From the IMG/VR virus record IMGVR_UViG_3300045988_130366: a stretch of DNA of 64,000 bases, one strand, 5' to 3'. A program made the position numbers and the translations under genes. The stretch comes from a virus. The notes under the pieces were generated by a model. The model did no database searches. It had not been told where the DNA came from and saw only the letters and a list, made by a program, of their open reading frames with translations. Below, piece by piece: positions 9,631-44,717 of the stretch. Numbering within the stretch: the stretch's first letter is position 1; the number at the start of each line of letters is the position of its first letter.

Positions 9631-11139
9631 ATGTCTGAGAACTATGGTGTAAAAGACATAAAAACTTTGGAAGGTATCGAAGCCATCAGGCTTAGACCTG
9701 GTATGTATATAGGCTCAATCGGACCAGATGGAGTTAGACATATTACTCTTGAAATTATTTCTAACGTAATTGATGAGTATTTAAACGGATATTGTACAAA
9801 GTGTAATATTGAGGTAACAGAAGATGACATGGTAAAAGTTTCTGATGATGGACGTGGTGTTCCTTTTGGAAAGGCGGCAGATGGTTCAGAAACTCTTGAA
9901 AATATTTTTACAAAGCTTCATACAGGAGCTAAATTTGATAGTTCTGGTAAAACTGGATATAATACATCTGGTGGTATGAATGGTGTTGGTGCAAAAGCAA
10001 CGAATGCATTGTCTGATAAATTTATTGTCACTTCCAAAAGAGATGGTAAAATTGCAACAATGACATTTGAAAAAGGTGAAAGAAAAGATTTTAAAGTTGA
10101 AAAGTATGCAGGAAAAGATACTGGAACAACTATTACTTTTCATCCCGATATTGAGATTTTTAAAGAAGGAATCTCACTTGATTATGAAGAATTAAAAAGA
10201 CAGATTCAGGAATTAGCATATCTTTCTCCTGGATTAACTTTTACATTAAAATATAAAGACAAAGCTGAAGATGTAATTGTTTCTCAGAATGGTATTCTGG
10301 ATTATATTCAAGATTTGAATAAAAAGAAAAATACTATTACATCTGTTTTTTATGCCGAGGCTTCCGAAGATAGAATTGGCGTAAAATTAGCAATGCTGTA
10401 TAACGATAGTTATACTGATACTTATAAATTATATACAAACTCAATTCCAAATACAGCTGGAACTCATCTTACTGGATTTAGAACTGCATTAACTTCTGCA
10501 ATTAATAATTATGCAAGAGAGAATAAACTTCTTAAAGAGAAAGATTCTAATATTGTAGGAGATGAGTTAAAAGAAGGTCTTGTATTAGTTCTTTCTTTTG
10601 TGATGCCAGACCCAGTCTTTTCAGGTCAGACAAAAGAGAAACTTGATTCAAGTGAAGGACGTACAATGGTCCAAAAGCTGGTGTCAAAAGAGATTGCGAT
10701 TTGGCTTGAAAGCCATCCGAATGATGCAAAAGCAATTATTAATAAGGCTTTATTGGCACGTGCCGCAAGAGAAAAAGCTAAAAAAGCTAAAGAGACAGTT
10801 CGTAAGGCGGATGTGAAGAAAAGAGCAGTAATGCCCGGTACATTAGCAGATGCAAGTTCTCGAAATAGAGCTTCTTGTGAAGTGTTTATTGTAGAGGGAA
10901 AGTCTGCTGCCGGTTCAACAAAAGAAGCCAGAGATAGAGCTACCCAGGCTGTGTTCCCCGTACGAGGAAAGATTCTTAACGTATTGAAGGCAGACCTTGC
11001 GAAGGCGTTAAAGAACGCAGAAATTGATGGTATGATTACTGCTTTTGGACTTGAAATTAAGGACGGAAAAGTAATTGTAAATAAAGATAAATTGCGTTAT
11101 GGTAAAATTGTTATTACAGCCGATGCGGATGTAGATGGT
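9631..11139 (+). CDS. gyrB: DNA gyrase subunit B, exon 1 (ATPase, transducer and TOPRIM up to …ITADADVDG)
   Basis: GyrB N-terminus (LEGIEAIRLRPGMYIGS), GHKL ATPase motifs, TOPRIM EGKSA(A)GS…, ends at DADVDG codon GGT (exon ends in U). Confidence 0.85.
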
Positions 11140-12229
11140 CAAATGTGGGCCAGTGAAAAACTTTTCGCTTAATCATCAAAGCGGGTATAAAATTTTTTGG
11201 TTAGAGATATTATATGTGATATGTACATTCATCATATAATATTGAGAAGAAAAGATTTTATGCTAACGGGGAAGGGTTATTAACTTAATCCCGTGGGAAA
11301 CTTATATTAATCCTTTCTTCTTAATATAATAATTAAGGAGAAATAAAAGTGATAGGTATATATAAAATTACAAACCTTGTAAATGGTAAAACTTATATTG
11401 GACAAAGTAATAATATAGAAAGAAGATTTAAAGAACATCAACAAAAAGGAGAATTGAGTAGAATTCCAGTTGATATTGCAATTAAAAAATATGGAAAAGA
11501 TATGTTTTCTTATGATATAGTTGAAGAATGTAAGTTAGAAGAATTAAATGAAAAAGAAACATATTGGATAAAAAAATATCATACAAAAGAAGATGGATAT
11601 AATTGCAATGACGGTGGGAGTTTTCAATCTTCTGGAGAAAATAATGGTAGAAGTAAATTAACCGAAAAAGATGTTATTTTAATTAGAAAAGCTTATAACA
11701 ATCATAAGAAACAATCTGAAATATATGAATTATTTTCTGATAAAATTTCTTTTGGACATTTCCAAAATGTTTGGCAAGGAAAGGTTTGGAGTAATGTAAT
11801 GCCAGAAGTTTTTACAGAAGAAAATAAAAATTATTATATCTATAAAAATAGTCAAGGACAAAATGGAAAAAATTCTAATCTTACAGATGAAGAAGTTATA
11901 AAAATAAGAAAAAGATATGTTAAAGAATCTGCAAGAGAGATTTATGAAGACTATAAGGATATAATGTCTTATCAAACTTTACAGCAATTATTATGGGGAA
12001 GACATTATTCTCATTTACCAATTTACAAGAAAAAAGAGAAAAAATGGATTAATATTTGAACCTGTATCGACTATCCCCCAGGCCTTTTGGGCGGGGGAGT
12101 AGGGCTGCTATTGATACGCAGCCAGGTTTTAGGAAACGAAGCCTGTTAAAAGCCGAAATGGTTTCCTTGATAAAATAAAATTTATCAAGTAAAAGATAGT
12201 CAGTGCCAATAGTAATATTGGAATAAATG
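11140..12229 (+). mobile_element. group I intron (gyrB intron 1) carrying GIY-YIG homing endonuclease ORF
   Basis: Interrupts DVDG|SHIR of GyrB; 3' core GTATCGACTATCC…CTATTGATACG…AGATAGTCAGTGCCAAT…AAATG ending in omega-G immediately before exon 2. Confidence 0.8.
11349..12059 (+). CDS. GIY-YIG homing endonuclease (intron-encoded, I-TevI-like)
   Basis: GIYKITNLVNGKTYIGQS…ERRFKEH motif; GTG start with AGGAG RBS; two NUMOD-like repeats. Confidence 0.85.
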   Translation: MIGIYKITNLVNGKTYIGQSNNIERRFKEHQQKGELSRIPVDIAIKKYGKDMFSYDIVEECKLEELNEKETYWIKKYHTKEDGYNCNDGGSFQSSGENNGRSKLTEKDVILIRKAYNNHKKQSEIYELFSDKISFGHFQNVWQGKVWSNVMPEVFTEENKNYYIYKNSQGQNGKNSNLTDEEVIKIRKRYVKESAREIYEDYKDIMSYQTLQQLLWGRHYSHLPIYKKKEKKWINI

Positions 12230-12407
12230 TCACATATTAGAGCGTTATTTTTAACCTTTATTTGGAAATTTGCTCCGCAATTAATTGAAGATGGATATAT
12301 TTATGCGGCAGTTCCTCCACTTTATAAAGTTACACAGGGAACTAAAATTACTTATCTAAAAGATGATGCGGCTCTTGAGGAATTTAGAAAGACAGCTAAA
12401 AAGTCTT
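12230..12407 (+). CDS. gyrB: DNA gyrase subunit B, exon 2 (SHIRALFLTF…GYIYAAVPPLYKV…TAKKS)
   Basis: Canonical GyrB PPLYK region; ORF 12227-12433 of the six-frame track = this exon plus read-through into intron 2. Confidence 0.75.
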
Positions 12408-13464
12408 TTGAGCTGGGTCGTATGAAAGGGTAAGAGATAGTCTGGCCCTTATCCACTTTTCCTCTAATCAGAGGGGTTATTATCTTAGATAATAGCTAAC
12501 GAGGCAGTCTTCAAAATATTTTGGGTATTTCAGGAAATCCTGAAATGGATAAAACTTAAATATTCTTGGAGATAATCTCGTGGGAAAAAACTATAAGAGA
12601 TTATCTTACATTTTATTATGTGAGGTATTCAATATGATAGGAATTTATAAGATAACAAACAAAATTAATGGAGATGCTTATATTGGACAAAGCACTCAAA
12701 TAGAAGAAAGATTTATAGAACATAAAAATCCTACAAATTGGGCAAGAGAATCTAATAAAAGTCTTTATAAAGCATTTATTCAATTTGGATTACAAAATTT
12801 TGATTTTTCCGTTTTAGAAGAATGCAAAAAAGAAGAATTAAATGATAAAGAACAATATTGGATTGGATATTATAGTACATATCCTAATCAATATAATATG
12901 ACTCCAGGAGGACAATTTAATGCAGGTGAATGTCATCCAAGTCATAAATTAACTGAAAAGGATGTGATTGATATTAGAACGAGATATAAAAATCACGAAA
13001 GAAAAAAAGACGTTTATTTATTATATGCTCATTTAATTGGGGAATCTGGCTTTCATAAAATTTGGAATGGTTCAACATGGAAAACAATAATGCCAGAAGT
13101 TTATACAAAAGAAAATAAAGATTTTCATGCTCATAATACTTCAAATGTAGGTTCTAAAAATGGAAGGTCTAAATTAACAGAAGAAGATGTTAAAAATATT
13201 CGCTTAAGAAAGAAAAATGGAGAGCAGTTATCTTCCGTTTATAATGATTATTCTGACAAATTAACTTATAAATCTTTTGAAAATGTTTGGTCTTATAGAA
13301 ACTGGAAAAAAATTATAGTTTAAGCCTGTATCGACTATTCCCTTTGTCGGGAAGTAGAAATACTATTGATACGTATTTCAAAAAGGTGGACATGATGAAG
13401 GCAGTTAATACGTTAGCCGGAGTGAAGAAATAGTCAGTACCAATGGTGACATTGGAGTAATACG
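12408..13464 (+). mobile_element. group I intron (gyrB intron 2) carrying GIY-YIG homing endonuclease ORF
   Basis: Splits …KKS|LGEMDP… (GyrB YKGLGEM motif restored on splicing); 3' core GCCTGTATCGACTATTCC…CTATTGATACG…AATAGTCAGTACCAATGG…AATACG omega-G. Confidence 0.7.
12580..13323 (+). CDS. GIY-YIG homing endonuclease (intron-encoded)
   Basis: GIYKITNKINGDAYIGQS…ERFIEHK motif. Confidence 0.85.
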   Translation: MGKNYKRLSYILLCEVFNMIGIYKITNKINGDAYIGQSTQIEERFIEHKNPTNWARESNKSLYKAFIQFGLQNFDFSVLEECKKEELNDKEQYWIGYYSTYPNQYNMTPGGQFNAGECHPSHKLTEKDVIDIRTRYKNHERKKDVYLLYAHLIGESGFHKIWNGSTWKTIMPEVYTKENKDFHAHNTSNVGSKNGRSKLTEEDVKNIRLRKKNGEQLSSVYNDYSDKLTYKSFENVWSYRNWKKIIV

Positions 13465-13652
13465 TAGGCGAGATGGACCCGTCCGAAATGGCTGAAACAG
13501 TTATGAATCCAGAAACCAGAACTCTTAAACAAATATGTATGGAAGATGCAGAAGAAGCTGCTAAAACTTTCATGGGATTGATGGGTGAGTCGGTTGTTTA
13601 TAGAAAGAAATTTATCGAAGAGAATGCATGGAGAGCAAATATTGACGTATAA
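13465..13652 (+). CDS. gyrB: DNA gyrase subunit B, exon 3 (C-terminal LGEMDPSEMAETVMNPETRTL…FIEENAWRANIDV*)
   Basis: Unmistakable GyrB C-terminus; total spliced length 1875 nt = 624 aa. Confidence 0.75.
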
Positions 13653-13748
13653 TGATGCAATGTATCTGGCCGTTGGAGTTGAAGACGGCTGGATACATGT
13701 AACTCCAAAAGTGTGGAAGGAATATTTAAAAGCTAAAGAGGTTATTAA

Positions 13749-14108
13749 ATGGAAGCAAAAATATTTGAATTTGTACCAGAAGAGTCAGAACACTTTGAAT
13801 CCCAATTTTTAAAATGGTATGATGCGGGTAAACCTAAAAATAATTTTAATGAGGCTTATGATTATAGTGCAATAACTCAATTCCTTATATGGGAATATGG
13901 ATTATCAGATGAATCATATGATGAACCTCGTAGATGGAATCAAATTGTAGAAGGAATTGTTTGTATTAATGGACGCTATTTTTCTGTTTGTTACGACAGA
14001 GGTTTAACAGAAATGCAAGAAGATTATTATGACTTTGATGATGATATTACTGAAGTTGAAAAACGCACAGTTTTAAAAGAGGTAACAGAATGGAAGAAAA
14101 AAAGATAA
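13749..14108 (+). CDS. hypothetical protein
   Basis: ORF with RBS AAAGAGG. Confidence 0.45.
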   Translation: MEAKIFEFVPEESEHFESQFLKWYDAGKPKNNFNEAYDYSAITQFLIWEYGLSDESYDEPRRWNQIVEGIVCINGRYFSVCYDRGLTEMQEDYYDFDDDITEVEKRTVLKEVTEWKKKR

Positions 14109-14802: not shown

Positions 14803-15081
14803 ATGGATAAGAATAAAGAACAGTTAAAAAAACAATTACTACAATTTGTTAAATCAGTTGAAGAACCTATAACAAAAGAAGAATATGATAAATATATGAA
14901 AAAATATCATAAACAAAATCCTCTTTTAAATACTGGTTCTGGTTATTTATATGTTCCATCAGAAGATGTTGTTGTTAGTGCTGATTCAATTTATAATTTT
15001 ATAGAAAAAGTTATAGATGAAAGTTTGATGGATGTAAAAATGCAATATTATAAAGAATTATTTGATAAGGGAGAGTCTTAA
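14803..15081 (+). CDS. hypothetical protein
   Basis: ORF preceded by TATGGTAATAT -10-like element. Confidence 0.4.
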   Translation: MDKNKEQLKKQLLQFVKSVEEPITKEEYDKYMKKYHKQNPLLNTGSGYLYVPSEDVVVSADSIYNFIEKVIDESLMDVKMQYYKELFDKGES

Positions 15082-17459
15082 TGAGTGAGAATATTATTCA
15101 AGTAAATATTAAAGATGAAATTGAACAGAGTTTACTTGATTATGGAATGAGTATCATTTCAGATCGAGCTTTACCTTCAGCAGAAGATGGATTAAAACCT
15201 GTTAATAGACGTATCTTATATGATATGTTTGATAAAGGTTTTATGAATAATAAGAAATTTGTAAAGTGCGCTCAGCCGGTCGGAGATACAATGGGTAGAT
15301 TTCATCCGCATGGTGATAGTTCTATTTATGGTGCATTAGTATGGATGTCACAGGAATGGAATATGAGATATCCACTCATTTCTTGGCATGGGAATAACGG
15401 AAGTCGAGATGGTGATGAACCGGCTGCATACAGATATACAGAATGTAAGCTTTCTAAACTCGGAGAAGAGATGCTTGCTGATATTAAAAAGAATACAGTA
15501 GATTGGATGAATGCTTATACAGATGAAGAGCAAGAACCAGTTTATTTACCTGGCCGCATTCCAAATCTTATCGTGAATGGTACTTCTGGAATTGCGTGGG
15601 CGATGGCTTGTTCATTTGCACCACATAATTTATCAGAAGTTATGGATGCAGCTATTCATCTTTTGGAAAATCCAGAATGCGACATTAGAGAGCTTTTAAA
15701 CTATATTAAAGGTCCAGATTTTCCAACAGGTGGATTACTTATTAATAAAGATGAACTTGAAACAGCTTATCTTACAGGAAAAGGTCGTGCAAGATTAAGA
15801 GGTGAATATACAATCGAATCTTCCAAAAGTGGAGATAGCATTGTTTTTACTTCAATGCCTTATAAGGTTTCAAAGGAGGATTTAATTGTTGAAATTGACA
15901 ACCTTTGCGAACAAGGTGAGATTAATGGCATTACAACGATTCGCGATGAATCAAACCAAAAAGGTGTCAGGTTTGTCATTGAATTGGGAAAAGGAGTGTC
16001 AACAGCTCCAATTATTGCAAAACTTTTTAAGTCCACAAGACTTGAAAGTACGTATTCATTCAACCAAGTTGCACTGGTTGACAAAAAGCCAAGACTTCTT
16101 AATATCAAACAATTATTAGAGAATTATATTGAACATCAAAAAGATGTCCTTTTAAGAAAAACTAAATTTGATATTGAAAAAGTTCAAGCTAAAATTCATA
16201 TTCTTGAAGGATTGCTTATTGCTTTAGAGGATATTGATAATATCATTTCACTCATTAAAAAGTCTTCAAGTGCGGCTGAAGCTAAAGTTGTTCTTATGAA
16301 TAAATATAATCTTAGTGAGGCACAGTCTAAAGCAATCTTAGATATGAAATTATCTCGTTTAGCAAAATTAGAGTCTGTTGAAATAAGGAATGAAAAAGAT
16401 TCTTTATTAATTAAAGAAGGTGAATTAAATCAGATTCTTTTAAATCCAGTTCCAGAAATGAAAAAGAACTTTACAGAGATTAAAACCTCATATGGAGATG
16501 CTCGTAGAACTACAATCACACAGGTAAATATCACAAAAGAAGAAAAAGAGATTGAATATGTAGAACCAGAAAAATGTGTTGTTGTAATGACAGAAGATGG
16601 TTTAATTAAACGTATTCCTTCTACAAGTTTCAGAACTCAGAGAAGGAATGGAAAAGGTGTTAAAACACAGGGTGATGTTGTTAAAACTACTATCCGTACA
16701 AATACTATTGATTCTCTGATGGTATTTACAACAAAAGGAAAAATGTATCGTATCCTTGTAAATGATATTCCAGTAGGTACAAATGTATCTAAAGGTCAGT
16801 CAATTAAATCTTTAATTGCGATGGATATTGATGAAGAACCTAATTTAATTTATTCTATTTATAGAGATACTGATGCGAAGTATTTATTATTTGTAACAAA
16901 GAATGGAATTACAAAGAAAACCTCCTTAGAGGAATATACAAATACAAAGAAAAAGACTGGAATTATTGCTATTAATCTTAAAGAGGATGATACATTAGTA
17001 TCTGTAAATCTTGTTAAAGATGAAGATTTAGTCCTTTTAACCTCTAATGGTATGGGAATTAAGATTAATTCTGGAGAGATTTCAGCTTCTGGTAGAGCAA
17101 CAGCAGGTGTTAAAGGAATCACTTTAAAGAAAGATGATTTTGTGGTTGCAGCATTACCAGTTCGTAATAAGACAGATTACATTGCAATCTTTTCATCTAA
17201 AGGTCTTGGAAAGAAGATTGAAATGGATGAATTAGTTCTTCAGAAACGTGCGGGAAAAGGCTTGATTATTTATAAACCAACAGAAGAAACAGGAACAGTT
17301 ATTTCTGGTGCTCTGGTTGCGGATGAGGATAATATTCTTGTTGTTGGCAAATTAAGTTCAATTTGTATTTCCGCAAAAGATATTCCTCTTGCAAGTAGAA
17401 TTGCAACAGGTAATCAGTTAATTAAAAACGGTGAAATTACTTCTGTGACAAAAATTTAA
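15081..17459 (+). CDS. gyrA: DNA gyrase subunit A (type IIA topoisomerase A subunit)
   Basis: GLKPVNRRILYDM, HPHGDSSIYGALVWMSQEW, active-site tyrosine region AAYRYTE; C-terminal beta-pinwheel repeats. Confidence 0.9.
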   Translation: MSENIIQVNIKDEIEQSLLDYGMSIISDRALPSAEDGLKPVNRRILYDMFDKGFMNNKKFVKCAQPVGDTMGRFHPHGDSSIYGALVWMSQEWNMRYPLISWHGNNGSRDGDEPAAYRYTECKLSKLGEEMLADIKKNTVDWMNAYTDEEQEPVYLPGRIPNLIVNGTSGIAWAMACSFAPHNLSEVMDAAIHLLENPECDIRELLNYIKGPDFPTGGLLINKDELETAYLTGKGRARLRGEYTIESSKSGDSIVFTSMPYKVSKEDLIVEIDNLCEQGEINGITTIRDESNQKGVRFVIELGKGVSTAPIIAKLFKSTRLESTYSFNQVALVDKKPRLLNIKQLLENYIEHQKDVLLRKTKFDIEKVQAKIHILEGLLIALEDIDNIISLIKKSSSAAEAKVVLMNKYNLSEAQSKAILDMKLSRLAKLESVEIRNEKDSLLIKEGELNQILLNPVPEMKKNFTEIKTSYGDARRTTITQVNITKEEKEIEYVEPEKCVVVMTEDGLIKRIPSTSFRTQRRNGKGVKTQGDVVKTTIRTNTIDSLMVFTTKGKMYRILVNDIPVGTNVSKGQSIKSLIAMDIDEEPNLIYSIYRDTDAKYLLFVTKNGITKKTSLEEYTNTKKKTGIIAINLKEDDTLVSVNLVKDEDLVLLTSNGMGIKINSGEISASGRATAGVKGITLKKDDFVVAALPVRNKTDYIAIFSSKGLGKKIEMDELVLQKRAGKGLIIYKPTEETGTVISGALVADEDNILVVGKLSSICISAKDIPLASRIATGNQLIKNGEITSVTKI

Positions 17460-17460
17460 G

Positions 17461-17488
17461 TGGGATTTATTTCCCACTTATCTTTTCC
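17461..17488 (+). terminator. rho-independent terminator
   Basis: GTGGGA-TTTATT-TCCCAC hairpin + T-rich tail. Confidence 0.6.
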
Positions 17489-17505
17489 AAAAGGAGAATA
17501 TATAA

Positions 17506-19446
<1,941 letters not shown>

Positions 19447-24293: not shown

Positions 24294-25271
24294 ATGGGAA
24301 TTAATTTATTAAATATTGAGCCACATAAGGTTAGTAAAGATTTAAGTGGATATATCACTTATATCTATGGGGCTCCTAAAACAGGAAAAACAACTTTAGC
24401 AGTTCAGATGCCAAAAACACTTTTACTCGCTTTTGAACGTGGATACAATGCATTGCCTGGTGTAATCGCTCAGGATGTTACCTCTTGGGGAGACATGAAA
24501 CAGGTTATGAGAGAGCTTAAAAAACCAGAAGTTAAGGCTAATTTTGATGCCGTAGTTGTTGATACTATTGATATTGCTTCTGATTTTTGTCAGAAATATA
24601 TTTGTCAGCAAAAAGGTATTGAGGCTCTTGGAGACCTTGGATATGGAAAAGGTTGGACTGCTTTCAAAGATGAATTTAATGATGTATTTAGAGGTTTAAC
24701 TCAGTTAGGATATGCAGTATTTTTCATCGGTCACCACAAAGAGCAGACAATTACAAATGATGATGGAACAGAAAAAATTGTAATTCGTCCTGCACTTAGT
24801 AATTCAACAAGACAGGTTATTGAAGGTATGGCTGATATTTATGGATATGCTCATCAGTCTAATAAGAATGAAATGTCTGTATTAACACTTCGTTGTCCAG
24901 ATGATTCTATTAGCTGTGGTGGTCGTTTTAAATATATCGCAAGTGAGTTTCCAATGAGTTATGATAATCTCGTAGAAGAGATTCATAGAGCTATTGATAA
25001 AGAAGCTCTTGAGCATGGTAATCAGTATGTTACAGATGAACGTGAAAAACCTGTTGAGAAAGAGGAATTAAATTATGATGCATTAATGAATAAGTTCCAG
25101 GAGTTAGTTGGTAATTTAATGCAGACTTCTGAGGCTAATGGACCTAAGATTACAAAGATTATTGAGAAATATCTTGGCAAAGGTCGTAAAATTGCGGATG
25201 CAACTCCAGAGCAAGTTGAGATGATTAACTTAATTGTAACTGAGATTGAAGATGAATTAATGCATAGCTAA
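24294..25271 (+). CDS. Sak4-like / RecA-superfamily ATPase (AAA_24)
   Basis: Walker A YGAPKTGKTT, Walker B VVVDTID; RBS AAGGAGAAAAGA before ATG 24294. Confidence 0.75.
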   Translation: MGINLLNIEPHKVSKDLSGYITYIYGAPKTGKTTLAVQMPKTLLLAFERGYNALPGVIAQDVTSWGDMKQVMRELKKPEVKANFDAVVVDTIDIASDFCQKYICQQKGIEALGDLGYGKGWTAFKDEFNDVFRGLTQLGYAVFFIGHHKEQTITNDDGTEKIVIRPALSNSTRQVIEGMADIYGYAHQSNKNEMSVLTLRCPDDSISCGGRFKYIASEFPMSYDNLVEEIHRAIDKEALEHGNQYVTDEREKPVEKEELNYDALMNKFQELVGNLMQTSEANGPKITKIIEKYLGKGRKIADATPEQVEMINLIVTEIEDELMHS

Positions 25272-34356: not shown

Positions 34357-36881
34357 ATGAGCAAAAAGTGGTTTAATTGTCATAACCATACAGAGTATTC
34401 AAACTTACGTCTTTTGGATTCAACCAATCACCCAAAAGATTTAATCAATAAAGCAATCGAATTAGGACTTAGTGGTATCTGTATAACTGACCATGAGGCC
34501 CTTTGTGCGCACGTTGAAATAAATAAAATTGCAACAGAGTTAAGAGAAACAAATCCTGATTTTGTGATTGGATTAGGAAATGAGATTTATTTAACTGATA
34601 CAAGAAATCATGGTCAGAAATATTATCATTTTATTTTGATTGCTAAAGATGCAATCGGTCATAAAGCGTTAAGAGAGTTAAGTTCTACAGCTTGGTATTA
34701 TTCATATATGGATAGAGGTATGGAAAGAGTTCCAACTTTAAAAGATGAATTAACTGAGATTGTAAGACATTATAAAGGTCATTTAATTGCAACAAGTGCA
34801 TGTATTGGTGGAGAATTATCTTCATGGTCTTTATTATATGCAGAAGCATTAAAGGTAAATGACCAAAAGATGGCAATGGAGTTTCAGAAAAAGATTCAAG
34901 ATTTTATGAATTTTGTTCTTGATTTATTTGGAGATGATTTTTATATTGAATGTGCTCCATCTAATAAAGAAGATCAAATGACTGTAAATTCTCAGTTGTT
35001 TAAAATTGCAACTGCATATAATGTTAAAATGGTTGTTGGAACTGACTCTCATTATTTAACAAAAGAAGATAGAATGGTTCATAAAGCATATCTTAATTCA
35101 AAAGGTGGAGAGCGTGAAGTTGATGACTTTTATGAATTTGCCAGACTTATGGATAGCGATGAAGTGGAAGAATTATTATCTCCATGTTTTCCAGATGGAT
35201 ATGTAGATGTAATTTTTGAAAACACTTTAGATTTACAAAATAAAATTGAATATTATAGTCTTTTTCATAAGCAGGATATTCCATCTGTAGAAGTTAAAGA
35301 TTATCCAAAAGTAAGAGGATTTAAACAATATCCACATTTATCTGCAATGTTAATGGATGATGATATTCAGAATCGTTATTGGGTAAATGAATGTTTAAAT
35401 CAGCTTGAAAAACTTGAAAAAATTAATGATAGACGTTATCTTGATGAGCTTGAAGAAGAAGCACGAGTTAAAAGTATCATTAGTGAAAAACTTGAAACAA
35501 ATATGTTTCGTTATCCAAATACACTTCAGCATTATATTGATATGATTTGGGATTGCGGTTCAATGGTAGGTGCTGGTCGTGGTTCCAGTTGTGCCGCGCT
35601 TAATCATTACCTTATGGGAATTACTCAGTTGGATCCTATTGAATGGGATTTACCTTTCTTCCGTTATCTTAATGAAGAGAGAATTGAGCTTGGTGATATT
35701 GATATTGACATATGCCCGTCTAAACGTCCGGAAATTCTTCGTAAAATTAAAGAAGAGCGTGGAAAGATGTTCTATGATAATATCATGGAATGGGCAAAGA
35801 AAAATCTTGGATGTACTCTTGTAGCAACATTCGGTACAGAAGGAACCAAATCTGCAATTCAGACAGCTTGTAGAGGTTATAGAAGTGAGGATTATCCAGA
35901 AGGAATTGATGTTGATGAAGCTCAGTATATGAGTTCATTAATTCCAGAGGAAAGGGGTTTTTTATGGACAATTAAAGAAGTTGTTTATGGAAATCCAGAA
36001 AAAGGTCGTAAACCTGTTAAGACATTTGTAAATGAAGTAAATAAATATCCAGGTTTATTGGATATTATTGTAGCTATTGAAGGTCTTGTAAACCATAGAG
36101 GCTCTCATGCATCTGGTGTAATTTTATTTGGAGATGACCCATTTGAGCATAGTGCTTTTATGAAAACTCCAAAAGGTGAGATTACTACTCAGTTTGACTT
36201 ACATGATGCAGAGTATATGGGATTAACAAAATATGATTTTCTTGTAACTGAGGTTCAGGATAAGTTGGTTCAAACTATTCAATTACTCCAAGAGGATAAT
36301 GAAATTGAGCCAGAATTAAGTTTGCGGGAAGTCTATGATAAATATTTTCATCCTAATGTTTTACCTTTAAATGATCAAAAGATTTGGGATGCATTGGGTA
36401 AAGTATCTGTTATTAATACTTTCCAGTTTGATTCTCAGGTTGGTGCGCAGGTTGCAAAGAAATTAAAACCTCAGAATGTATTGGAAATGGCGGATGCGAA
36501 TGGTCTAATGAGACTTATGGGCGAAGATGGAGAAGAACGCCCAATGGATAAATATTATCGTTTTAAACAAAACATTCAGTTATGGTATGATGAAATGACA
36601 AAATTTGGTCTTACCAAAGAAGAGCAGAAAACTCTTGAACCTTACTTTAAGAGTTCTTATGGAGTTCCGCCTTCACAGGAACAGTTAATGAGAATGTTGA
36701 TGGATGATAAGATTTGTCACTTCAGTCTTGGAGAAGCAAATGCGGCTCGTAAGATTGTTGGTAAAAAGCAGATGAATAAAATTCCAGCTTTGCATGAAAA
36801 GGTATTGGCACAGGCGGCAAGTGAGAAGCTTGGCCAGTATGTATGGAAATGTGGAGTTGGCCCGCAGATGGGTTATTCATT
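34357..36881 (+). CDS. dnaE: DNA polymerase III alpha (DnaE-type), exon 1 (PHP, palm, fingers up to …QMGYSF)
   Basis: PHP motif CHNHTEYS…ITDHEAL, DnaE palm/fingers similarity, ends in conserved GYxF of the GYGFNKSH region; exact 5' splice site +/- few nt. Confidence 0.75.
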
Positions 36882-38115
36882 TAGCGTTGTGTAAATGGCG
36901 CTTACACACTTAACCACTTATCGGTGGGGTAATTAAAACATTAATATATTTGGCAAATATAGTTTTAATTGCTAACGAGGGTAAAATCTCGTGACAAATT
37001 TCTTTAATAGAGGTATAGTGTTTTTCATTTATACATGAGAACAATAGCCATGTATAAAGGAGAATATTTATGTATTATATTTATAAATTCACAAATAAAA
37101 CAAATGGTAAGATTTATATTGGGCAAACTAATAATATTCAAAAACGAAAAAATGGTCATAGAAGTGATTCTTTTAATGAAAAAAGTTCTGGATATAATTT
37201 ACCATTTCATTCTGCAATAAGAAAATATGGTTGGGATAATTTTAATTTTGATATTCTTGAAGAAATATCAGATGGAGAGTCTCAAGATTATATTGATGAA
37301 AGAGAAATTTTTTTCATTCAATATTATCATTCTTTAAAAGACGAAAATGGATATAATATTTCTATTGGGGGTCAAGGATATAAAAGACAACCCTTAACTT
37401 ATGAAGAAAGATTGAATCTATCTAAGTTATTTAAAAAAGAAGAGATTATTGATATTCAAAATCGTTTAATGAATGATGAAGAATATGATGATATTGAAAA
37501 AATTTATTATCCTAAATTAAAACGAACATTTTTAGTCAATATAAATACTGGAACAAATTATTTTAATGAAAAATTTGATTATCCTTTAAAGAAAAATTCC
37601 AGAAGTCGTTTTTCTCAAAAAGAAATTCGAGAAATAAAAGATAGAATTAAAAGTGGAGAGAAATATAAATCCATTCAAGAAGATTTTAATATTAAATCCG
37701 CAGGATTTTTATCTATGATAAATACTGGAAAATATTTTTATAGTAATCAAGATACATATCCACTTTGTGATAAAGGAAGTAATAAAGCTAAAAATGAAGT
37801 TTGGGTTCAAGGTATTATAAAAGATATCTTAGAAACAGAATTATCATTAAAAGATATTTCTAAAAAATGGAATAAAAGTTACGCTACAGTTAAAAATATT
37901 AACTCTGGTCGTTCTCATAAAAAAGAAAAATATAAATACCCTCTTAGAGATAATAAATAAATCTATTAAAAGAAAAATGTTGTATCGACTATCCTGGGTT
38001 AGACCGGGAGTACTGGAACTATTGATACGTTCTGGGAAATAGTGTGCGGATAAGGGGTATGCCAAAACCTCACTACAACATCCGTAAAAAATAGTCAGTA
38101 ATTTAAAAAATTATG
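36882..38115 (+). mobile_element. group I intron in dnaE carrying GIY-YIG homing endonuclease ORF
   Basis: Shared core TGTATCGACTATCC…CTATTGATACG…AATAGTCAGTAATTT…TTATG omega-G; exon 2 resumes (F)IHALAYSFIGVQTLY matching DnaE [13 protein letters not shown]. Confidence 0.7.
37070..37960 (+). CDS. GIY-YIG homing endonuclease (intron-encoded)
   Basis: YIYKFTNKTNGKIYIGQTNNIQKRKNGH motif. Confidence 0.8.
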   Translation: MYYIYKFTNKTNGKIYIGQTNNIQKRKNGHRSDSFNEKSSGYNLPFHSAIRKYGWDNFNFDILEEISDGESQDYIDEREIFFIQYYHSLKDENGYNISIGGQGYKRQPLTYEERLNLSKLFKKEEIIDIQNRLMNDEEYDDIEKIYYPKLKRTFLVNINTGTNYFNEKFDYPLKKNSRSRFSQKEIREIKDRIKSGEKYKSIQEDFNIKSAGFLSMINTGKYFYSNQDTYPLCDKGSNKAKNEVWVQGIIKDILETELSLKDISKKWNKSYATVKNINSGRSHKKEKYKYPLRDNK

Positions 38116-39511
38116 TATACACGCTTTAGCTTATAGTTTCATTGGTGTTCAAACATTATATATTGCAACAAATTGGAATCCTATTTATTGGGATTGTGCA
38201 TGTTTAATTGTAAACAGTGGTTCACTTGAAGATAATAGTGAGTTAGAGATTGATGAGGATAATGAATCTGAATCTATTTCCGTGAAGAAAACAGCTTCAA
38301 CTGATTATGGAAAAATCGCAAAGGCGATGGGTGAAATTATATCTGCGGGAATTAAAATGAGCCTTGTTGATATAAATAATTCAGATTATGGATTTAAACC
38401 TGATGCTAAAAATAATCAGATTCTTTATGGAATGAAAGGTTTATTGAATGTCAGTGATGCGGTAATTGATGATATTATCAAAAATAGACCTTATATTTCA
38501 CCTAAAGACTTTTTATTAAAAGTGCGTCCAAATAAACAGGCAATGATTTCACTTATTAAAGGTGGAGCATTTGATACAATGATTGACCGCAAGATTTGTA
38601 TGGGTTGGTATATTTGGGAAACTTGTGATAAGAAGAAACGAATTACTTTACAAAACATGGGAGGTTTGATTAAATATAATCTTCTTCCAGAAAAAAATGA
38701 ACAACAGATTATGGCGAGAAGAGTTTATGAATTTAATCGTTATCTAAAATCTGTTTGTAAGATTAAAGGTGATACAACTAATTATCATATAGATGATAGA
38801 GCAATGAATTTTTTGATTGAAATGGAACATGATGATTTATTAGAGGGTTATTCTTTAAATATGAAAGCATGGGACAAAGTATATCAGAAATGGATGGATG
38901 TATTCAGAGAGTGGATTGCGGAAGAAAAAGAACAGATTCTTCAGAACTTAAATGAAAAAATCTTTAAGGATGATTGGGATAAATATGCTCAAGGAACTTT
39001 ATCAGCTTGGGAAATGCAGGCATTATGTTTCTATTACCATGAACATGAATTATCTCATGTTGATACTCAAAGATATGGTTTTGTTGATTTTGATAAGCTG
39101 CCGCAAGAACCTATTGTAGAAAGAACATTTACAAAAGGTGCAAAGCAAATTAATATATTCAAATTGAATAAAATTTGCGGAACTTGTATTGCTAAAAATA
39201 AAACTAAAAGTACAGTAACTATATTGACAACTTCTGGAGTAGTTAATGTTAAATTTAGAAAAGAATATTTCTCATTATTTGATAAGCAGATTTCTGAAAA
39301 ACAAGAAGATGGAACTAAAAAAGTTCGAGAAAAATCTTGGTTCAATCGAGGAAATATGATTATAGTAATGGGCATTAGGTCAGGGGATGATTTCATTTCT
39401 AAGAAATATGCTTCTTCTAATGGACATCAATTATATAAGATTGATAAAATTAATGAAGATGGAAGTTTGGAAATTAGAAGTGATAGATACCAAGGAGAAG
39501 ATGTTTTTTAA
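38116..39511 (+). CDS. dnaE: DNA polymerase III alpha (DnaE-type), exon 2 (C-terminal: HhH, beta-binding region, OB fold)
   Basis: …IHALAYSFIGVQTLYIA… then DINNSDYGFKP / GMKGL (cf. DnaE DINRSD…GLGAIKG). Confidence 0.7.
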
Positions 39512-40520: not shown

Positions 40521-41816
40521 ATGGAGGGATACAATATGTTAGAAGTTCAAAAACGAAATGGTGATATTGTCCCATTTGATAAAGAAAAAATTATTGATGC
40601 AGTAAACAGAGCAATGATTGAAGTAGATAAAATCCTTTATGAGACAGATACTTCAGAAGATATTGCTACTGAAATTGAAGAAATGGCTAAACGCTCTAAG
40701 ACAACTATTTCTGTAGAAACTATTCAAGATTGTGTAGAAGATTTATTAATGCAATCTGAAAGAAGAGATGTTGCAAGAGCGTATATTCGTTATAGATATA
40801 AACAAGAAGCAAAGAGAGAGCATGAGGCAGTTTTTGTTAAAACTTATAGTGAAAAATTGGAAGCCCGCAATGTTCAAAATCAAAATGCTAATGTAGATGA
40901 ACACTCTTTTGGCGGACGTATGGGTGAAGCAAGCTCAGTTATGACAAAGAAATATGCTTTAGATTATATTGTATCTAAAATGTCAAGAGATAATCATTTA
41001 AACAATGAAATTTATATTCACGATTTAGATAGTTATGCTGTTGGAATGCATAATTGTTTGTCATTACCTATAGATGATTTACTTAGAAATGGTTTTAATA
41101 CTCGTCAAACTGATGTTCGTCCTGCTCAATCTGTTAATACAGCTTTTCAGCTTTTGGCAGTATTATTTCAGTTACAATCATTACAGCAGTTTGGAGGAGT
41201 ATCTGCTACTCACTTAGATTGGAGCATGGTTCCTTATGTTCGTAGAAGTTTTTATAAGCATTTCTTAGATGGCATTAAATATTGTCAAAAAGGTCAGATG
41301 CTTGGATTAGCTGGAACTTATGAAGATTTTGATTTATCTAATGCAAAAGAGGCGTGGATTAAAGCTGATGCTTCTATTAATGATGATGTATTTGTTAGAA
41401 ATGAAGCAGCTTATCAATATGCCGTAGATATGACAATAAAAGAAACTTATCAAGCTGTAGAAGGAATGTATCATAATCTTAATACATTACAATCTCGAAG
41501 TGGAAACCAGTTACCTTTTACTTCTATTAACTATGGTACATGTACTTTACCAGAAGGAAGATTAGTAACAGAGGCTTTATTAAATGTATCTATTAAAGGT
41601 ATTGGAAAGCTTCATAAAACTTCTATTTTTCCTTGTGGAATTTTCCAGTGTATGAAAGGAGTCAATCGTGAAGAAGGAGACCCAAATTACGATTTATTTA
41701 AACTCGCATTACGTTCAACCGCCACAAGACTGTACCCAAATTATGCTAATGTCGACTGGTCTGGAAACGCAGGATATGACATCAACGACCCTCGTACCTA
41801 CTTCTCTACAATGGGT
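40521..41816 (+). CDS. nrdD: anaerobic ribonucleoside-triphosphate reductase NrdD, exon 1 (ATP-cone … YFSTMG)
   Basis: ATP-cone VQKRNGDIVPFD, IYIHDLD…HNC, ends at …TMG just before conserved radical-loop Cys (cf. E. coli SPMG|CRSF). Confidence 0.8.
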
Positions 41817-42706
41817 AAGCGAAAACTCAGCCCATTTAAAATCTTTTGAACTGTGCTAACAGGTGTTTATATATTCTAATATATAGGCTAACGGTTAGGT
41901 CTTAATGACTTTGCAGTTTGTTGTTAAGATGAGACCGTGCTAAGATTCATTATAATATTCACACATAGAAGGAGGCTATATGTGGATATATAAAATAACA
42001 AATATTCAAAATAATAAAGTTTATATTGGTCAAACAATACGACCAATAAATCAAAGATTTCATCGGCATTTGAATGATGCTATCAATAATATTTTAGATA
42101 CACACTTTGCCAGAGCAATTAGAAAATATGGTAAAGATAATTTTATCATAGAAGAAATTGATACCGCTCAAACTCAAGATGAATTAAACCAAAAAGAACA
42201 ATATTGGATTAGATTTTATAATTCAGTTGAAGAAGGATATAATGAAACAGATGCAATATCTAAGTGCGGGGGTAATACATATCGTTCTAAAACTGAAGAA
42301 GAGATGGAAATTATCAAAGAAAAAATTCGACAAACAAAAATAGGTACTAAAAACCCTATGGCACGAAAAATTAAACGAACAAACATTATTACTAATGAAG
42401 TAGATATATTTAATACTGTTATTAGTTGTGCTAAAGCTTGTGGAATTAAAAATGGTAAAACATCTATCTCAACAAGATTAAATGGACAAATAAAAAGTCC
42501 TTATAAAAATACTTGGATTTTTGAATATTATAATGAATAAAGTGTATCGACTATCCCTGATGAATGTATGGGAGTAGGGACGGAGATAAGCACCGTCGTT
42601 GTTTTAGGAAACGAAGCAACTGAGAACCGAAGCGGAAGACAACTCTATTTACTTTTAAATAGAATGATAATATAGTCAGTGCTGATGGTGACATCAGATA
42701 AACACG
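41817..42706 (+). mobile_element. group I intron (nrdD intron 1) with GIY-YIG homing endonuclease ORF
   Basis: Core GTGTATCGACTATCC…; 3' end …ATATAGTCAGTGCTGATGG…AACACG omega-G; splicing joins MG|CRTANGYDINGFGQLKDGRGN (cf. MGCRSFLGVWENENGEQIHDGRNN). Confidence 0.75.
41980..42540 (+). CDS. GIY-YIG homing endonuclease (intron-encoded)
   Basis: MWIYKITNIQNNKVYIGQT…RFHRH motif. Confidence 0.8.
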   Translation: MWIYKITNIQNNKVYIGQTIRPINQRFHRHLNDAINNILDTHFARAIRKYGKDNFIIEEIDTAQTQDELNQKEQYWIRFYNSVEEGYNETDAISKCGGNTYRSKTEEEMEIIKEKIRQTKIGTKNPMARKIKRTNIITNEVDIFNTVISCAKACGIKNGKTSISTRLNGQIKSPYKNTWIFEYYNE

Positions 42707-43225
42707 TGCAGAACTGCCAATGGGTACGATATTAACGGTTTCGGTCAGTTAAAAGATGGACGTGGAAATATTTGTCCTGTAACAATTATTTTACCTACAT
42801 TAGCAATGGAAGCTAAACAGAACTTTATGTCTCAATATGCTTTAACTGGCGAAGATGCAAAAGAAGCTTTTGCAGTTGAATATTTCATGACTCTTTTAGA
42901 TGAAAAAATTCATCAGGCAAAAGATATGTTGATTGAACGCTTCGATTGGATTTGTTCTCAGGATGCTTCTGCCGCAGTCTTTATGTATGAGAATGGCACA
43001 ATGAAGGGGTATATTCCAGAGGAAGGAATAAGAAGCGCATTAAAACATGGAACTTTAGCGGTAGGTCAGTTAGGACTCGCTGAGACTCTTCAAATTCTTA
43101 TTGGCACAGACCATACGACTTCAGAAGGAATGAAACTGGCTAAAAGAATTGAACAGTTATTTAAAGATAGATGTGCGGAATTTAAAGAAGAATATAAGCT
43201 TAATTTTGGTGTATATTATACTCCT
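42707..43225 (+). CDS. nrdD: NrdD exon 2 (CRTANGYDING…ILPTLAMEAK…VYYTP)
   Basis: Matches E. coli NrdD DGRNNLGVISLNLPRIALEAK block; ends at …YYTP (cf. LYSTPSENLC). Confidence 0.75.
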
Positions 43226-44198
43226 AAACTTTTCGGATTGGGAGTCGCACAAGTGATTGTGTGAAAAAACAACTCTGTTAAACGGGCAATCGTAATAAGA
43301 TGATAAGAGAGACTAAACCTGTAATAAGGCAAGTTAATCCCGTAGGGTAAATTCATTGGACACAAGTTTTCAGTCGTGTATAATAAAAATTCATATAATA
43401 TAGAAGGAGAGTGAATTTTTTTATGGCACGTAGAAAAATGACAGATAAATTAATTAAAAGAAGTCAAATTAATGAAGAAATACGATTAATTAATGGAAGT
43501 GAAACTGATTATATTTCTTCAAAAGGTAATATTTATAAAGATTATGGAAATGATTTATTTTATCCCAAAGCAAATTTTATAAATAAAAATAATGGATATT
43601 TATATTCCAGTATAACTTATCCAGAAGGACAAAGACAAAGAAGAGTGCATATTTTAGTTGCAGAAGCTTTTTTGCCTAATCCAAATAATTATACAGTAGT
43701 AATGCATAAAGATAATAATAAAGCAAACCCTGAAGTATCTAATCTTGAATGGGGGACTAATTCAAAAAATACTAAAGATGCTTATAAAGATGGTCTTGCT
43801 AAAAATGATAAAAGCTGGGATGATAATCAATCAATTCATATTTGTAGTTTTGATTTACAGGGCAACCTATTAAAGATGTATGGCTCTGTAGGAGAAGCTT
43901 CAAGAGAATTACACGTTACAAAAACAACAATATTAAATCAATGTAATCACAATGTAAAAACAAAACCTCGTTGTGGATATTGGTTTAGATACTTGACTGA
44001 ATACAAAACCAATGGATTTGTTCTCTAACGACTATCGAAAACATAGTTATAAAAGAAATATTTATAATGAAGAAGTGAGTAGAGTAGGATATTATATCCG
44101 AAAGACAGAGCTCTTATTATTTGGTAATAGGATAATAAGATGATAATATAGTCTAATCCCCTTTTTTATGAAATATCGGGAAACCGAGGGTTCGAATG
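43226..44198 (+). mobile_element. group I intron (nrdD intron 2) with HNH-type homing endonuclease ORF
   Basis: 3' end …AATATAGTCTAATCC…GGGTTCGAATG omega-G; joins YYTP|AENLCYK. Confidence 0.7.
43411..44028 (+). CDS. HNH-family homing endonuclease (I-HmuI-like, with AP2-like DNA-binding C-terminus)
   Basis: …VHILVAEAFLPNPNNYTVVMHKDNNKANPEVSNLEWGT… HNH_3-type motif; RBS GAAGGAG. Confidence 0.65.
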   Translation: MNFFMARRKMTDKLIKRSQINEEIRLINGSETDYISSKGNIYKDYGNDLFYPKANFINKNNGYLYSSITYPEGQRQRRVHILVAEAFLPNPNNYTVVMHKDNNKANPEVSNLEWGTNSKNTKDAYKDGLAKNDKSWDDNQSIHICSFDLQGNLLKMYGSVGEASRELHVTKTTILNQCNHNVKTKPRCGYWFRYLTEYKTNGFVL

Positions 44199-44717
44199 GC
44201 CGAAAACCTTTGCTATAAAGCTTTAAAGAATTTTAAAGCAAAATATGGAGTAATTGAAAATGTAAGTGATAAAGAGTTTTTTACTAATTCAATTCATGTT
44301 CCAGTTTGGAAAGAAATGTCTCCATTTGAGAAGATTGATATTGAGTCTCAATTAACCGGTTATTCATCTGCGGGATGTATTACTTATGTTGAATTAGATT
44401 CTGGTATTAAAAACAATCTTGAAGCATTAGAGCAAATTGTAAATTATGCTATGGATAAAGACATTCCATATTTTGCAGTTAATGTACCAAACGATACATG
44501 TCTTGAGTGCGGATACACAGATGAATTTAATGATAGATGTCCTATCTGCGGAAGCACTCATATTCAACAGCTTAGAAGAGTTACTGGATATTTAACAGGA
44601 AATTATAAAACTGCTTTTAACCTTGGTAAGCAAGATGAAGTTGAGCATCGTGTTAAACATGGAGGAAAAAGAGAATGGGCGCAGATAAAACCTGGCACGA
44701 CAAAGAAGAATACTTAA
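44199..44717 (+). CDS. nrdD: NrdD exon 3 (…ENLCYK…Zn ribbon CLECGY…CPICG…glycyl-radical RRVTGYLTG…)
   Basis: C-terminal Zn ribbon and glycyl radical motif RVxGY; spliced total 2334 nt = 777 aa. Confidence 0.8.
   Translation, partial: AENLCYKALKNFKAKYGVIENVSDKEFFTNSIHVPVWKEMSPFEKIDIESQLTGYSSAGCITYVELDSGIKNNLEALEQIVNYAMDKDIPYFAVNVPNDTCLECGYTDEFNDRCPICGSTHIQQLRRVTGYLTGNYKTAFNLGKQDEVEHRVKHGGKREWAQIKPGTTKKNT

Follow-up and report, generated by a model that had tools for sequence, protein, structure and literature searches.

The td intron of phage T4, an IA2 group I intron that carries the gene of the GIY-YIG endonuclease I-TevI, is located in a phage DNA-metabolism gene. In the gene orf142 of Staphylococcus phage Twort, several group I introns are found within a single gene. 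Phage genes can also be divided at the protein level, as for T4 gp39/gp60, a split topoisomerase that is assembled from its pieces. In the 'Jug' jumbo phages of the gut, terL, nrdD and DNA polymerase genes are interrupted by numerous group I introns and genes of homing nucleases (18.5 introns per genome), where about half of the predictions were confirmed to be spliced in metatranscriptomes (PMC12880540). Here, we study the gyrase B gene (gyrB) within a 64,000-nt stretch of IMG/VR virus record IMGVR_UViG_3300045988_130366; this whole stretch is called the window in the following. In our reading, to which we give a probability of roughly 0.92, gyrB consists of three exons that are split by two group I introns of one IA2-like family, each with an I-TevI-like GIY-YIG gene in its P6 loop, and the mature message is produced by the inferred splicing. 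The finding is a new host gene with new insertion sites for a well-known kind of mobile intron, which is ordinary in large phages.

Reading frame and joined product

The frame of exon 1 reads ...ITADADVDG up to 11139 and then meets a stop codon at 11170-11172, as seen in the six-frame listing of open reading frames (ORFs) and by direct reading. It resumes at 12230 with SHIRALFLTF...PPLYKV...ELGRMKG and is closed by the TAA at 12431-12433, which begins with the last exon base T12431. Finally, the TA at 13465 completes a TTA Leu codon that is followed by LGEMDPSEM...ANIDV and the stop codon. Direct reading thus agrees with the three breakpoints given in a preliminary description of the locus.

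Joining 9631-11139, 12230-12431 and 13465-13652 results in one ORF of 1899 nt, i.e., 632 aa rather than the 624 aa counted before. The preliminary description had also proposed to align the spliced product to GyrB. Among the solved GyrB/ParE chains, E. coli GyrB (6rks) is the best match (E 1.5e-146), and the alignment runs end to end. Alignments are gapless across both junctions, DADVDG^SHIR and R(Y/M)KG^LGEM (insertion points are marked by ^ throughout), such that the joined protein is continuous with solved GyrB and the expected DVDGSHIR and (Y/M)KGLGEM motifs are indeed restored. Exon 1 covers the Pfam domains HATPase_c and DNA_gyraseB as well as the first two thirds of Toprim, aligns to 6rks and is colinear with the intronless allele L001 of a related phage. 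Exon 2 covers GyrB_hook and is likewise aligned to solved GyrB and colinear with L001, and exon 3 provides DNA_gyraseB_C (62 bits; aligned to 6rks residues 721-804). All GyrB domains are therefore present in the joined product, together with end-to-end GyrB similarity. By these matches, the predicted 632-aa product is assigned to gyrase subunit B.

The frames also bear on inteins, group II introns or an assembly artefact as the source of the interruptions, to which we give a negligible chance. GyrB is listed among the intein hosts of other organisms (PMC4760082). Here, however, stops follow both junctions in the gyrB frame, no Hint domain is present, and the sole Pfam match of the inserts is to GIY-YIG, in a different frame context and with its own ribosome-binding site. 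Neither a reverse transcriptase nor a group II match in Rfam was found. Given these in-frame stops and absent components, both the intein and the group II reading are excluded by the sequence. Against an assembly artefact, the same structures are observed in the independent contigs L003, L006 and L009.

Empty, single and double alleles in related phages

A scan of IMG/VR with exon 1 identified 80 related gyrB loci on viral contigs of 130-200 kb. According to tblastn with the joined protein, 57 of the related loci carry an uninterrupted gyrB, with 98-99% protein identity to the window's gyrB for L001, L002, L004, L005 and L007. These five are empty alleles on contigs with 96-99% identity; at the same level of identity, L003 carries intron 2 only and L006 intron 1 only, and gyrB is otherwise unchanged in length. 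That is, intron 1 is present in L006 and absent from L001, L002, L003, L004 and L005, while intron 2 is present in L003 and L009 and absent from L001, L002 and L004-L008. On the nucleotide level, the three exons joined in order reproduce the empty alleles precisely, with no base gained or lost. Since intronless alleles are colinear to the base, the intron boundaries are fixed.

We also compared the flanking codons, which differ consistently in all of the 10 closest alleles. Occupied copies of site 1 read GTA GAT GGT^TCA CAT and empty ones GTT GAT GGT AGY CAY; for site 2, GGG T^TA GG (occupied) is found vs. GGT CTT GG or GGT TTG GG (empty). All these differences are synonymous, and the intron-linked codons are those that pair with the guide sequence. 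The presence/absence polymorphism at 96-99% identity along with the linked codons provides indirect support for homing. Beside the ORF-bearing versions, an ORF-less homolog of intron 1 (282 nt) occupies the same site in L111, and an ORF-less version of intron 2 (263 nt) is found at the same site in L080.

Splice sites and guide pairing

Both 5' exons end in T (11139, 12431) and both introns end in G (12229, 13464). The introns share the 3' motif ATAGTCAGT, located at 12196-12204 in intron 1 and at 13430-13438 in intron 2, which is followed by a 6-bp GNRA hairpin (12206-12221; 13440-13455), about 8 nt and the terminal G. The sequence reads here just as described before. Both introns thus feature a U·G wobble in P1, a terminal G (omega G) and a P10 pairing; respective positions are provided in Table 1.

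A pattern derived from two shared 3' motifs located 75 more viral loci with this intron family. Covariation was studied for 53 sequences (guide, P4) and for a 41-sequence alignment (3' domain). Across insertion sites, the guide of the 53 non-identical family members covaries with the local exon, e.g., ACGU/GCGU, GGAU/GUCC and AGGCCU/GGGCU. Within P10, L082 replaces an A-U pair by G-C (GCGCAU/GUGCGG).

This evidence also bears on a division at the protein level, i.e., gyrB cut by free-standing nuclease cassettes into three pieces that are translated one by one and assemble without RNA splicing. T4-like phages are known to have split topoisomerase and reductase genes whose products come together as proteins, e.g., the mobE-split NrdA of Aeh1 (PMC3045599), and the window provides an in-frame ATG immediately before exon 2 (12227) as well as a Met in exon 3 at 13473. 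However, position 12227 is just past the P9 hairpin and lacks a Shine-Dalgarno sequence, and no ribosome-binding site is found before exon 2 or exon 3. The breaks would be inside the DxDxDG-SHI and YKGLGEM motifs and leave pieces of 67 and 61 aa. Furthermore, the guide sequence pairs with both exon ends, and the ORF-less inserts at the same sites (L111, L080) cannot be nuclease cassettes. Finally, about 380 nt of non-coding sequence per insert are conserved with covarying helices, which is needless for a bare nuclease cassette. Given these sequences, a gene split at the protein level is unlikely, and we leave it only a very slim chance.

RNA fold and covariation

For two interrupting group I introns, a group I core is expected in each. 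Both show a P3-P7 pseudoknot, a P4-P6 stack, P8 and the R/S elements, where P4, P6, P3, P8 and P9 are supported by covariation. Covariation is also observed for hpA, P7.1 and P7.2, with hpA and hpB denoting two hairpins between the P3 5' strand and J3/4. P4 is paired in 100% of the 53 sequences, and one of its pairs switches between A-U and G-C; this switch separates the two introns of the window (ACGGGG/UCCCGU in intron 1 vs. ACGAGG/UCUCGU in intron 2).

The long-range helices were assessed by family-wide, alignment-free duplex tests, in which the pairing energy of each strand with its own partner is compared to that with partners from other members. For P3, own and cross partners yield -7.1 vs. 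-4.2 kcal/mol (p 1.5e-12), and a compensatory series is observed (AAAAC/GGUUU, AAGAC/GGUCU, AACAC/GGUGU, UCCAC/GUGGA, CCUAC/GUAGG, CUCAC/GUGAG, GGCAC/GUGCC). The difference is larger for P6 (-14.6 vs. -5.5 kcal/mol, p 7e-23). In intron 1, the P6 3' strand is formed by the last codons of the nuclease ORF, which places the ORF in the P6 loop.

Within the 3' domain (P7, P7.1, P7.2, an optional hairpin, P8, P9), 94.2% of the positions are paired in the 41 sequences compared to 36-49% in slid controls. Compensatory changes are found in 25/34 pairs, among them all P7.1 pairs and 4/6 P7.2 pairs, and none of the 500 shuffles reaches the observed scores. In addition, P3, hpA, hpB, P4, P5, P6, P7.1 and P9 of intron 2 are recovered by minimum-free-energy folding once its ORF is deleted.

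Two side observations concern intron 1. First, type A family members feature an extra hairpin (12124-12144 in intron 1) between P7.2 and P3', which combines a covarying stem of 3-4 bp with a near-invariant 15-nt loop UUUUAGGAAACGAAG. Intron 2 and some of the type A members (L082, L153) lack this hairpin, which may be a tertiary-contact module. Second, 11235-11257 and 11309-11331 can form a near-perfect alternative pairing of 23 bp that would disrupt hpB and the P6 5' strand and that ends 4 nt short of the AAGGAG of the nuclease gene. With this pairing, the RNA may alternate between folding as a ribozyme and translation of the nuclease, or the match may be an AT-rich coincidence.

Homing endonuclease genes

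Each intron contains a homing endonuclease gene (HEG). HEG 1 matches PF01541 with 44 bits and HEG 2 with 27.9 bits (cut-off 22.6), and the respective E-values against the I-TevI catalytic domain (1MK0) are 1.6e-10 and 6.9e-6. When compared with 1MK0/1LN0, the GIY, YIG, Arg, Glu and Asn positions of both proteins are aligned. They share 42% identity over the full length, starting from residue 1. For HEG 2, translation is unlikely to start at the in-frame GTG at 12580. In both proteins, a C-terminal module NGRSKLTE(K/E)DV..IR is duplicated about 80 aa apart, and this duplication is probably a tandem DNA-binding repeat. In summary, comparative alleles, P1/P10 pairings, covarying helices and the Pfam and I-TevI matches bear out the two group I introns with one GIY-YIG gene each that had been proposed.

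Family models and subgroup

To score the family directly, we used R1, a covariance model of the 3' domain. R1 yields 169.6 bits for intron 1 (E 2e-46) and 125.5 bits for intron 2 (E 6e-34), both of which are part of its training set, and 100-155 bits for independent relatives. No match is found in the intronless allele L001. For the 3' domain of td, an experimentally known intron, in a T4-type phage, the score is low (17.9 bits, E 0.002) and E-values are only roughly calibrated. Two weak R1 matches elsewhere in the window, at 24967-25081 (11.8 bits, E 0.11) and at 17360-17515 (10.4 bits, E 0.27; across the gyrA-ligase junction), are probably due to chance.

In related phages, R1-type introns are found at four gyrB sites, namely EGK^SA (aa 424), RGK^ILNV (447), DVDG^SHI (503) and KG^LGEM (570). 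The two sites beyond those of the window, aa 447 (PVRGK^ILNV) and aa 424 (VEGK^SAAG), are occupied in L008 (3817-3993), L009 (8340-8516), L088 (1525-1669), L120 and L122. Among these, L009 (447+570) and L088 (424 and about 503) have a doubly interrupted gyrB, while the window's combination (503+570) is found in none of the 80 sampled relatives.

Several results weigh against the assignment to group I introns. The Rfam model RF00028 (Intron_gpI), suggested as a check in the preliminary description, never reaches its gathering score of 50 bits, whether for the window, the ORF-flanking halves or 20 related loci. Its best score, 16.6 bits (E 0.054 in a small search), is obtained for a full-model alignment of the ORF-less L111 and is thus below that threshold as well. 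The helix order is unlike td in all members, i.e., P2 is missing, the P3 5' strand directly follows P1, and hpA/hpB precede J3/4-P4. Taken alone, P3 is a weak helix in intron 1 (-2.2 kcal/mol, to which a UUUC/GAAA segment of 4 bp is added). P7 (GACUAU/AUAGUC) and the proposed G-binding region are invariant, which renders covariation neutral on both. Finally, only residues 3-90 of the endonucleases match solved I-TevI structures, and the DNA-binding domain finds no match at E up to 1.

With regard to Rfam, only chance-level miRNA/snoRNA matches were returned when 10900-13700 and either ORF-flanking half of intron 1 were searched with E-values of up to 10. Within the RF00028 alignment of L111, P4, P6, R (GUAUCGACUA) and S (AAGAUAGUC) are in register, while the model handles the P7.1/P7.2 block (70 nt) as inserted sequence. 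R and S can also be aligned to td. The RF00028 miss appears to reflect limits of the model for a subtype with a large ORF and P7.1/P7.2 insertions rather than a missing structure.

Some of these points would also fit decayed group I introns that no longer splice, in which case gyrB would be a pseudogene and the phage would use the host gyrase. Beside the weak P3 of intron 1 and the low RF00028 scores, the 23-bp pairing would compete with hpB and P6, and splicing itself is a prediction. Decay is nevertheless at odds with the intact state of the locus. The three exon frames and the conserved residues are intact, as are both nuclease ORFs with their catalytic residues, all core helices in both introns and the neighbouring gyrA; in addition, both introns are conserved at 96-99% in independent contigs. 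We consider decay very unlikely.

For the group I introns as proposed, the subgroup can be narrowed. P7.1 and P7.2 are a hallmark of subgroup IA, and both introns place them between the P7 5' strand and the P3 3' strand as in IA2. The other IA2 arrangement, with P2 between P1 and P3 and the P3 5' strand next to J3/4-P4, is absent in comparison to td, the sole curated IA2 structure used. We found no description of hairpins between P3 and P4 in the literature, where td is the one curated IA structure compared. A further-reaching and rather doubtful interpretation is that the gyrB introns represent a large undescribed architectural variant of IA2. Therein, two hairpins nested inside a P3-closed junction would replace the P2 arm, combined with conserved L7.2 and optional P7.3 loops. 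Such a variant, missed by Rfam, would have colonised at least four gyrB catalytic-motif sites, dnaE, nrdD and others across gut/environmental phages and cultured Enterococcus phages.

Other predicted introns and genes in the window

R1 also matches two further genes of the window, dnaE (66 bits) and nrdD (96 bits). The dnaE intron encloses a GIY-YIG ORF (37070-37960), its R1 match is at 37977-38130 and its P1 reads AGCGU/GCGCU. Removing the intron leaves a 1308-aa open frame through GYSFSV^IHALAYS. Intron 1 of nrdD likewise has a GIY-YIG ORF (41980-42540), with the R1 match at 42539-42713, P1 AUGGGU/GCCCAU and the junction STMG^CRT. Insert 2 of nrdD combines an HNH_3 endonuclease ORF (43411-44028) with P1 ACUCCU/GGGAGU, a td-like AUAUAGUC element and a terminal G. 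With both inserts removed, NrdD (anaerobic ribonucleotide reductase) comprises 777 aa and can be aligned to 8p23 over its whole length (E 5e-121). In total, five group I introns are predicted in the window.

The twice-interrupted gyrB had been called unusual. This is the weaker part of the description, given a dnaE interrupted once and an nrdD interrupted twice in the same window as well as the four gyrB sites and two other doubly interrupted gyrB genes in relatives. Multiple introns per gene are common in this phage clade, and a twice-interrupted gene is not exceptional.

The window comprises the module for replication and nucleotide metabolism of a large phage. Beside an uninterrupted GyrA at 15081-17459, which ends in C-terminal beta-propeller repeats, there are genes for an NAD-dependent ligase, DNA polymerase III alpha and NrdD as well as for an endolysin, PhoH, a DnaB-type helicase, RecJ and a tail fibre protein. 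Two ORFs of the six-frame listing had been dismissed as exon or read-through artefacts. This is correct for 12227-12433, which is exon 2 with the last three bases of intron 1 (ATG) and the first two of intron 2. It is not for 13585-13812, which is read in another frame than exon 3, shares 68 nt with the end of gyrB and runs past its stop. From the ATG at 13660, just past the gyrB stop, it could encode about 50 aa that are kept in close relatives, and it overlaps the start of ORF 13749-14108. This downstream part may be a small gene or spurious.

Table 1. Positions of predicted exons, introns, helices and endonuclease genes (HEGs) in the window; empty cells where no strand is given.
Feature	Position	Strand	Details
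gyrB exon 1	9631..11139	+	aa 1-503; ATPase, transducer, first part of Toprim; end DADVDG
gyrB exon 2	12230..12431	+	aa 504-570 and first base of Leu571; SHIR...PPLYKV...RMKG
gyrB exon 3	13465..13652	+	aa 571-632; (L)GEMDP...IDV; stop 13650-13652
Intron 1	11140..12229	+	1090 nt; predicted group I, IA2-like
Intron 1 P1	11136..11152	+	exon UGGU + C11140 / guide GGCCA 11148-11152; U11139·G11149
Intron 1 P10	11143-11148 / 12230-12235	+	guide AUGUGG / exon 2 UCACAU; 6 bp
Intron 1 P3 5' strand	11158..11166	+	AAAC-U-UUUC; pairs with 12155-12164 (GAAA-U-G-G-UUU)
Intron 1 hpA	11167-11182	+	between P3 5' strand and J3/4; 92% paired, 3/5 pairs with double changes
Intron 1 hpB	11186-11262	+	local hairpin of variable length, in all family members
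Intron 1 J3/4 (UA), P4, P5	11264..11294	+	P4 ACGGGG 11266-11271 / UCCCGU 11289-11294
Intron 1 P6 5' strand	11304..11313	+	AUAUUAAUCC; pairs with GGAUUAAUAU 12046-12055
HEG 1	11349..12059	+	GIY-YIG, 236 aa; GTG start; AAGGAG 11335-11340, 8 nt upstream
Intron 1 3' domain	12061..12229	+	J6/7, P7, P7.1, P7.2, extra hairpin, P3', P8, P9, terminal G 12229
Intron 1 P7	12069-12074 / 12196-12201	+	GACUAU / AUAGUC
Intron 1 P7.1	12075-12097	+	
Intron 1 P7.2	12103-12123	+	
Intron 1 extra hairpin	12124-12144	+	
Intron 1 P8	12167-12188	+	
Intron 1 P9	12206-12221	+	
Intron 2	12432..13464	+	1033 nt; predicted group I, same family as intron 1; terminal G 13464
Intron 2 P1	12426-12431 / 12445-12450	+	AAGGGU / GCCCUU; U12431·G12445
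Intron 2 P10	12440-12444 / 13465-13469	+	GUCUG / UAGGC; 5 bp
Intron 2 P3	12452-12460 / 13382-13390	+	
Intron 2 hpA	12461-12474	+	
Intron 2 hpB	12477-12495	+	
Intron 2 P4	12499-12504 / 12576-12581	+	
Intron 2 P5	12507-12573	+	
Intron 2 P6	12588-12596 / 13313-13321	+	
HEG 2	12634..13323	+	GIY-YIG, 229 aa; ATG 12634; GAGG 12622-12625, 8 nt upstream
Intron 2 P7	13333-13338 / 13430-13435	+	
Intron 2 P7.1	13339-13352	+	
Intron 2 P7.2	13358-13378	+	
Intron 2 P8	13391-13424	+	
Intron 2 P9	13440-13455	+	
dnaE intron	36888-38115		1228 nt; same family; DNA polymerase III alpha gene 34357-39511
nrdD intron 1	41817-42706		890 nt; same family; nrdD gene 40521-44717
nrdD insert 2	43226-44198		973 nt; predicted different, more td-like group I subtype; R1 only 9.5 bits

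Proposed mechanism and implications

From td/I-TevI and further group I introns of phages, we expect catalytic splicing, nuclease activity and homing. Just upstream of gyrB are a terminator and a promoter-like site, and the terminator-like sites inside the gene are ribozyme hairpins only. Lacking a convincing internal terminator, gyrB fits a single transcript. A promoter scan reports sites that are no more numerous than in shuffled sequence and is thus uninformative on separate nuclease promoters.

In the proposed course, gyrB would be transcribed as one pre-mRNA of about 4 kb with both introns, each of which would fold as a ribozyme. Its internal guide would pair with the end of the upstream exon (P1, with the U·G wobble at the cleavage site) and with the start of the downstream exon (P10). 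Free guanosine would attack the 5' splice site, and the 3'-OH of the released exon would then attack the bond past the terminal intron G. By two such ligations, the Toprim domain would regain DADVDG-SHIR and the C-terminal domain RMKG-LGEM, and the 632-aa GyrB would work with the GyrA encoded downstream. For homing, the GIY-YIG enzyme would cut the intronless gyrB of co-infecting relatives near the insertion site. Repair off the intron-bearing copy would transfer the intron along with a few flanking exon bases (co-conversion).

The locus matters for annotation, since gene callers would report a truncated 513-aa GyrB and orphan ORFs, with dnaE and nrdD fragmented likewise. Exact splice sites restore three essential genes of replication and nucleotide metabolism. 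GyrB joins the phage genes targeted by mobile group I introns, and the insertion sites in gyrB coincide exactly with its best-conserved motifs (EGxSA, RGKILNV, DxDxDG-SHI, KGLGEM). The series of empty, single and double alleles at 96-99% identity with linked codons offers a system to study homing, co-conversion and intron-mediated competition between co-infecting phages. Moreover, the intron family exposes a blind spot of RF00028, and its covarying alignment could seed a subtype model.

Comparison with known systems

A megablast of the whole region against GenBank phages gave no match, and a report of a group I intron in gyrB was not found in the searchable literature, which is weak evidence of absence. 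When searching with the two 3' domains, blastn matches only introns of Enterococcus, Lactococcus and Lak phages, none of which is in gyrB. For the Lak megaphages, the match covers 70 nt of the P7.2-P7.3 region.

The same intron family is present in the Enterococcus phages EF1/EF5 (MF001358, MF001361) and VRE9_3 (PP680569), where GenBank annotates only 'hypothetical protein' or 'homing endonuclease'. R1 matches EF1 at 2501-2671 (MF001358, our L155; 154.8 bits) and VRE9_3 at 2503-2637 (PP680569, our L156; 100.3 bits). These introns resemble those of the window in that their 3' domain is 75-83% identical (blastn) and the nuclease ORF is just upstream of it, inside a split replication gene; in EF1, DNA polymerase III alpha is split as is the window's dnaE. 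In contrast to the gyrB introns, they interrupt other genes and reside in cultured phages of Gram-positive hosts.

Twort resembles the window in having multiple introns per gene, while most of its introns lack ORFs and interrupt another gene. The Jug phages differ in their genome size of 360-402 kb, compared to the 130-200 kb contigs of the window's relatives; their intron matches average about 206 nt, and gyrB is not named as a host (PMC12880540).

The td intron differs from the gyrB introns in host gene and insertion sites. Its UCUAUC runs straight into UAAACGGGG, whereas the gyrB introns have hpA/hpB between the P3 5' strand and J3/4 and no P2. The gyrB introns further differ by a conserved L7.2 loop CUAUUGAUACG and, for intron 1, by the extra UUUUAGGAAACGAAG hairpin between P7.2 and P3'. 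According to sequence search, the C-terminal regions of their endonucleases are unrelated to that of I-TevI. On the other hand, the P4 regions are near-identical, i.e., CUAA(A)CGGGGAA...AAUCCCGUG and CUAAACGGGGAAC...AAUCCCGUG. The 3' cores share the order P7, P7.1, AGUAG, P7.2, P3', P8, P7' (AUAGUC) with a near-identical J7.1/7.2, and both td and the gyrB introns have a GIY-YIG gene with an I-TevI-type catalytic domain in the P6 loop.

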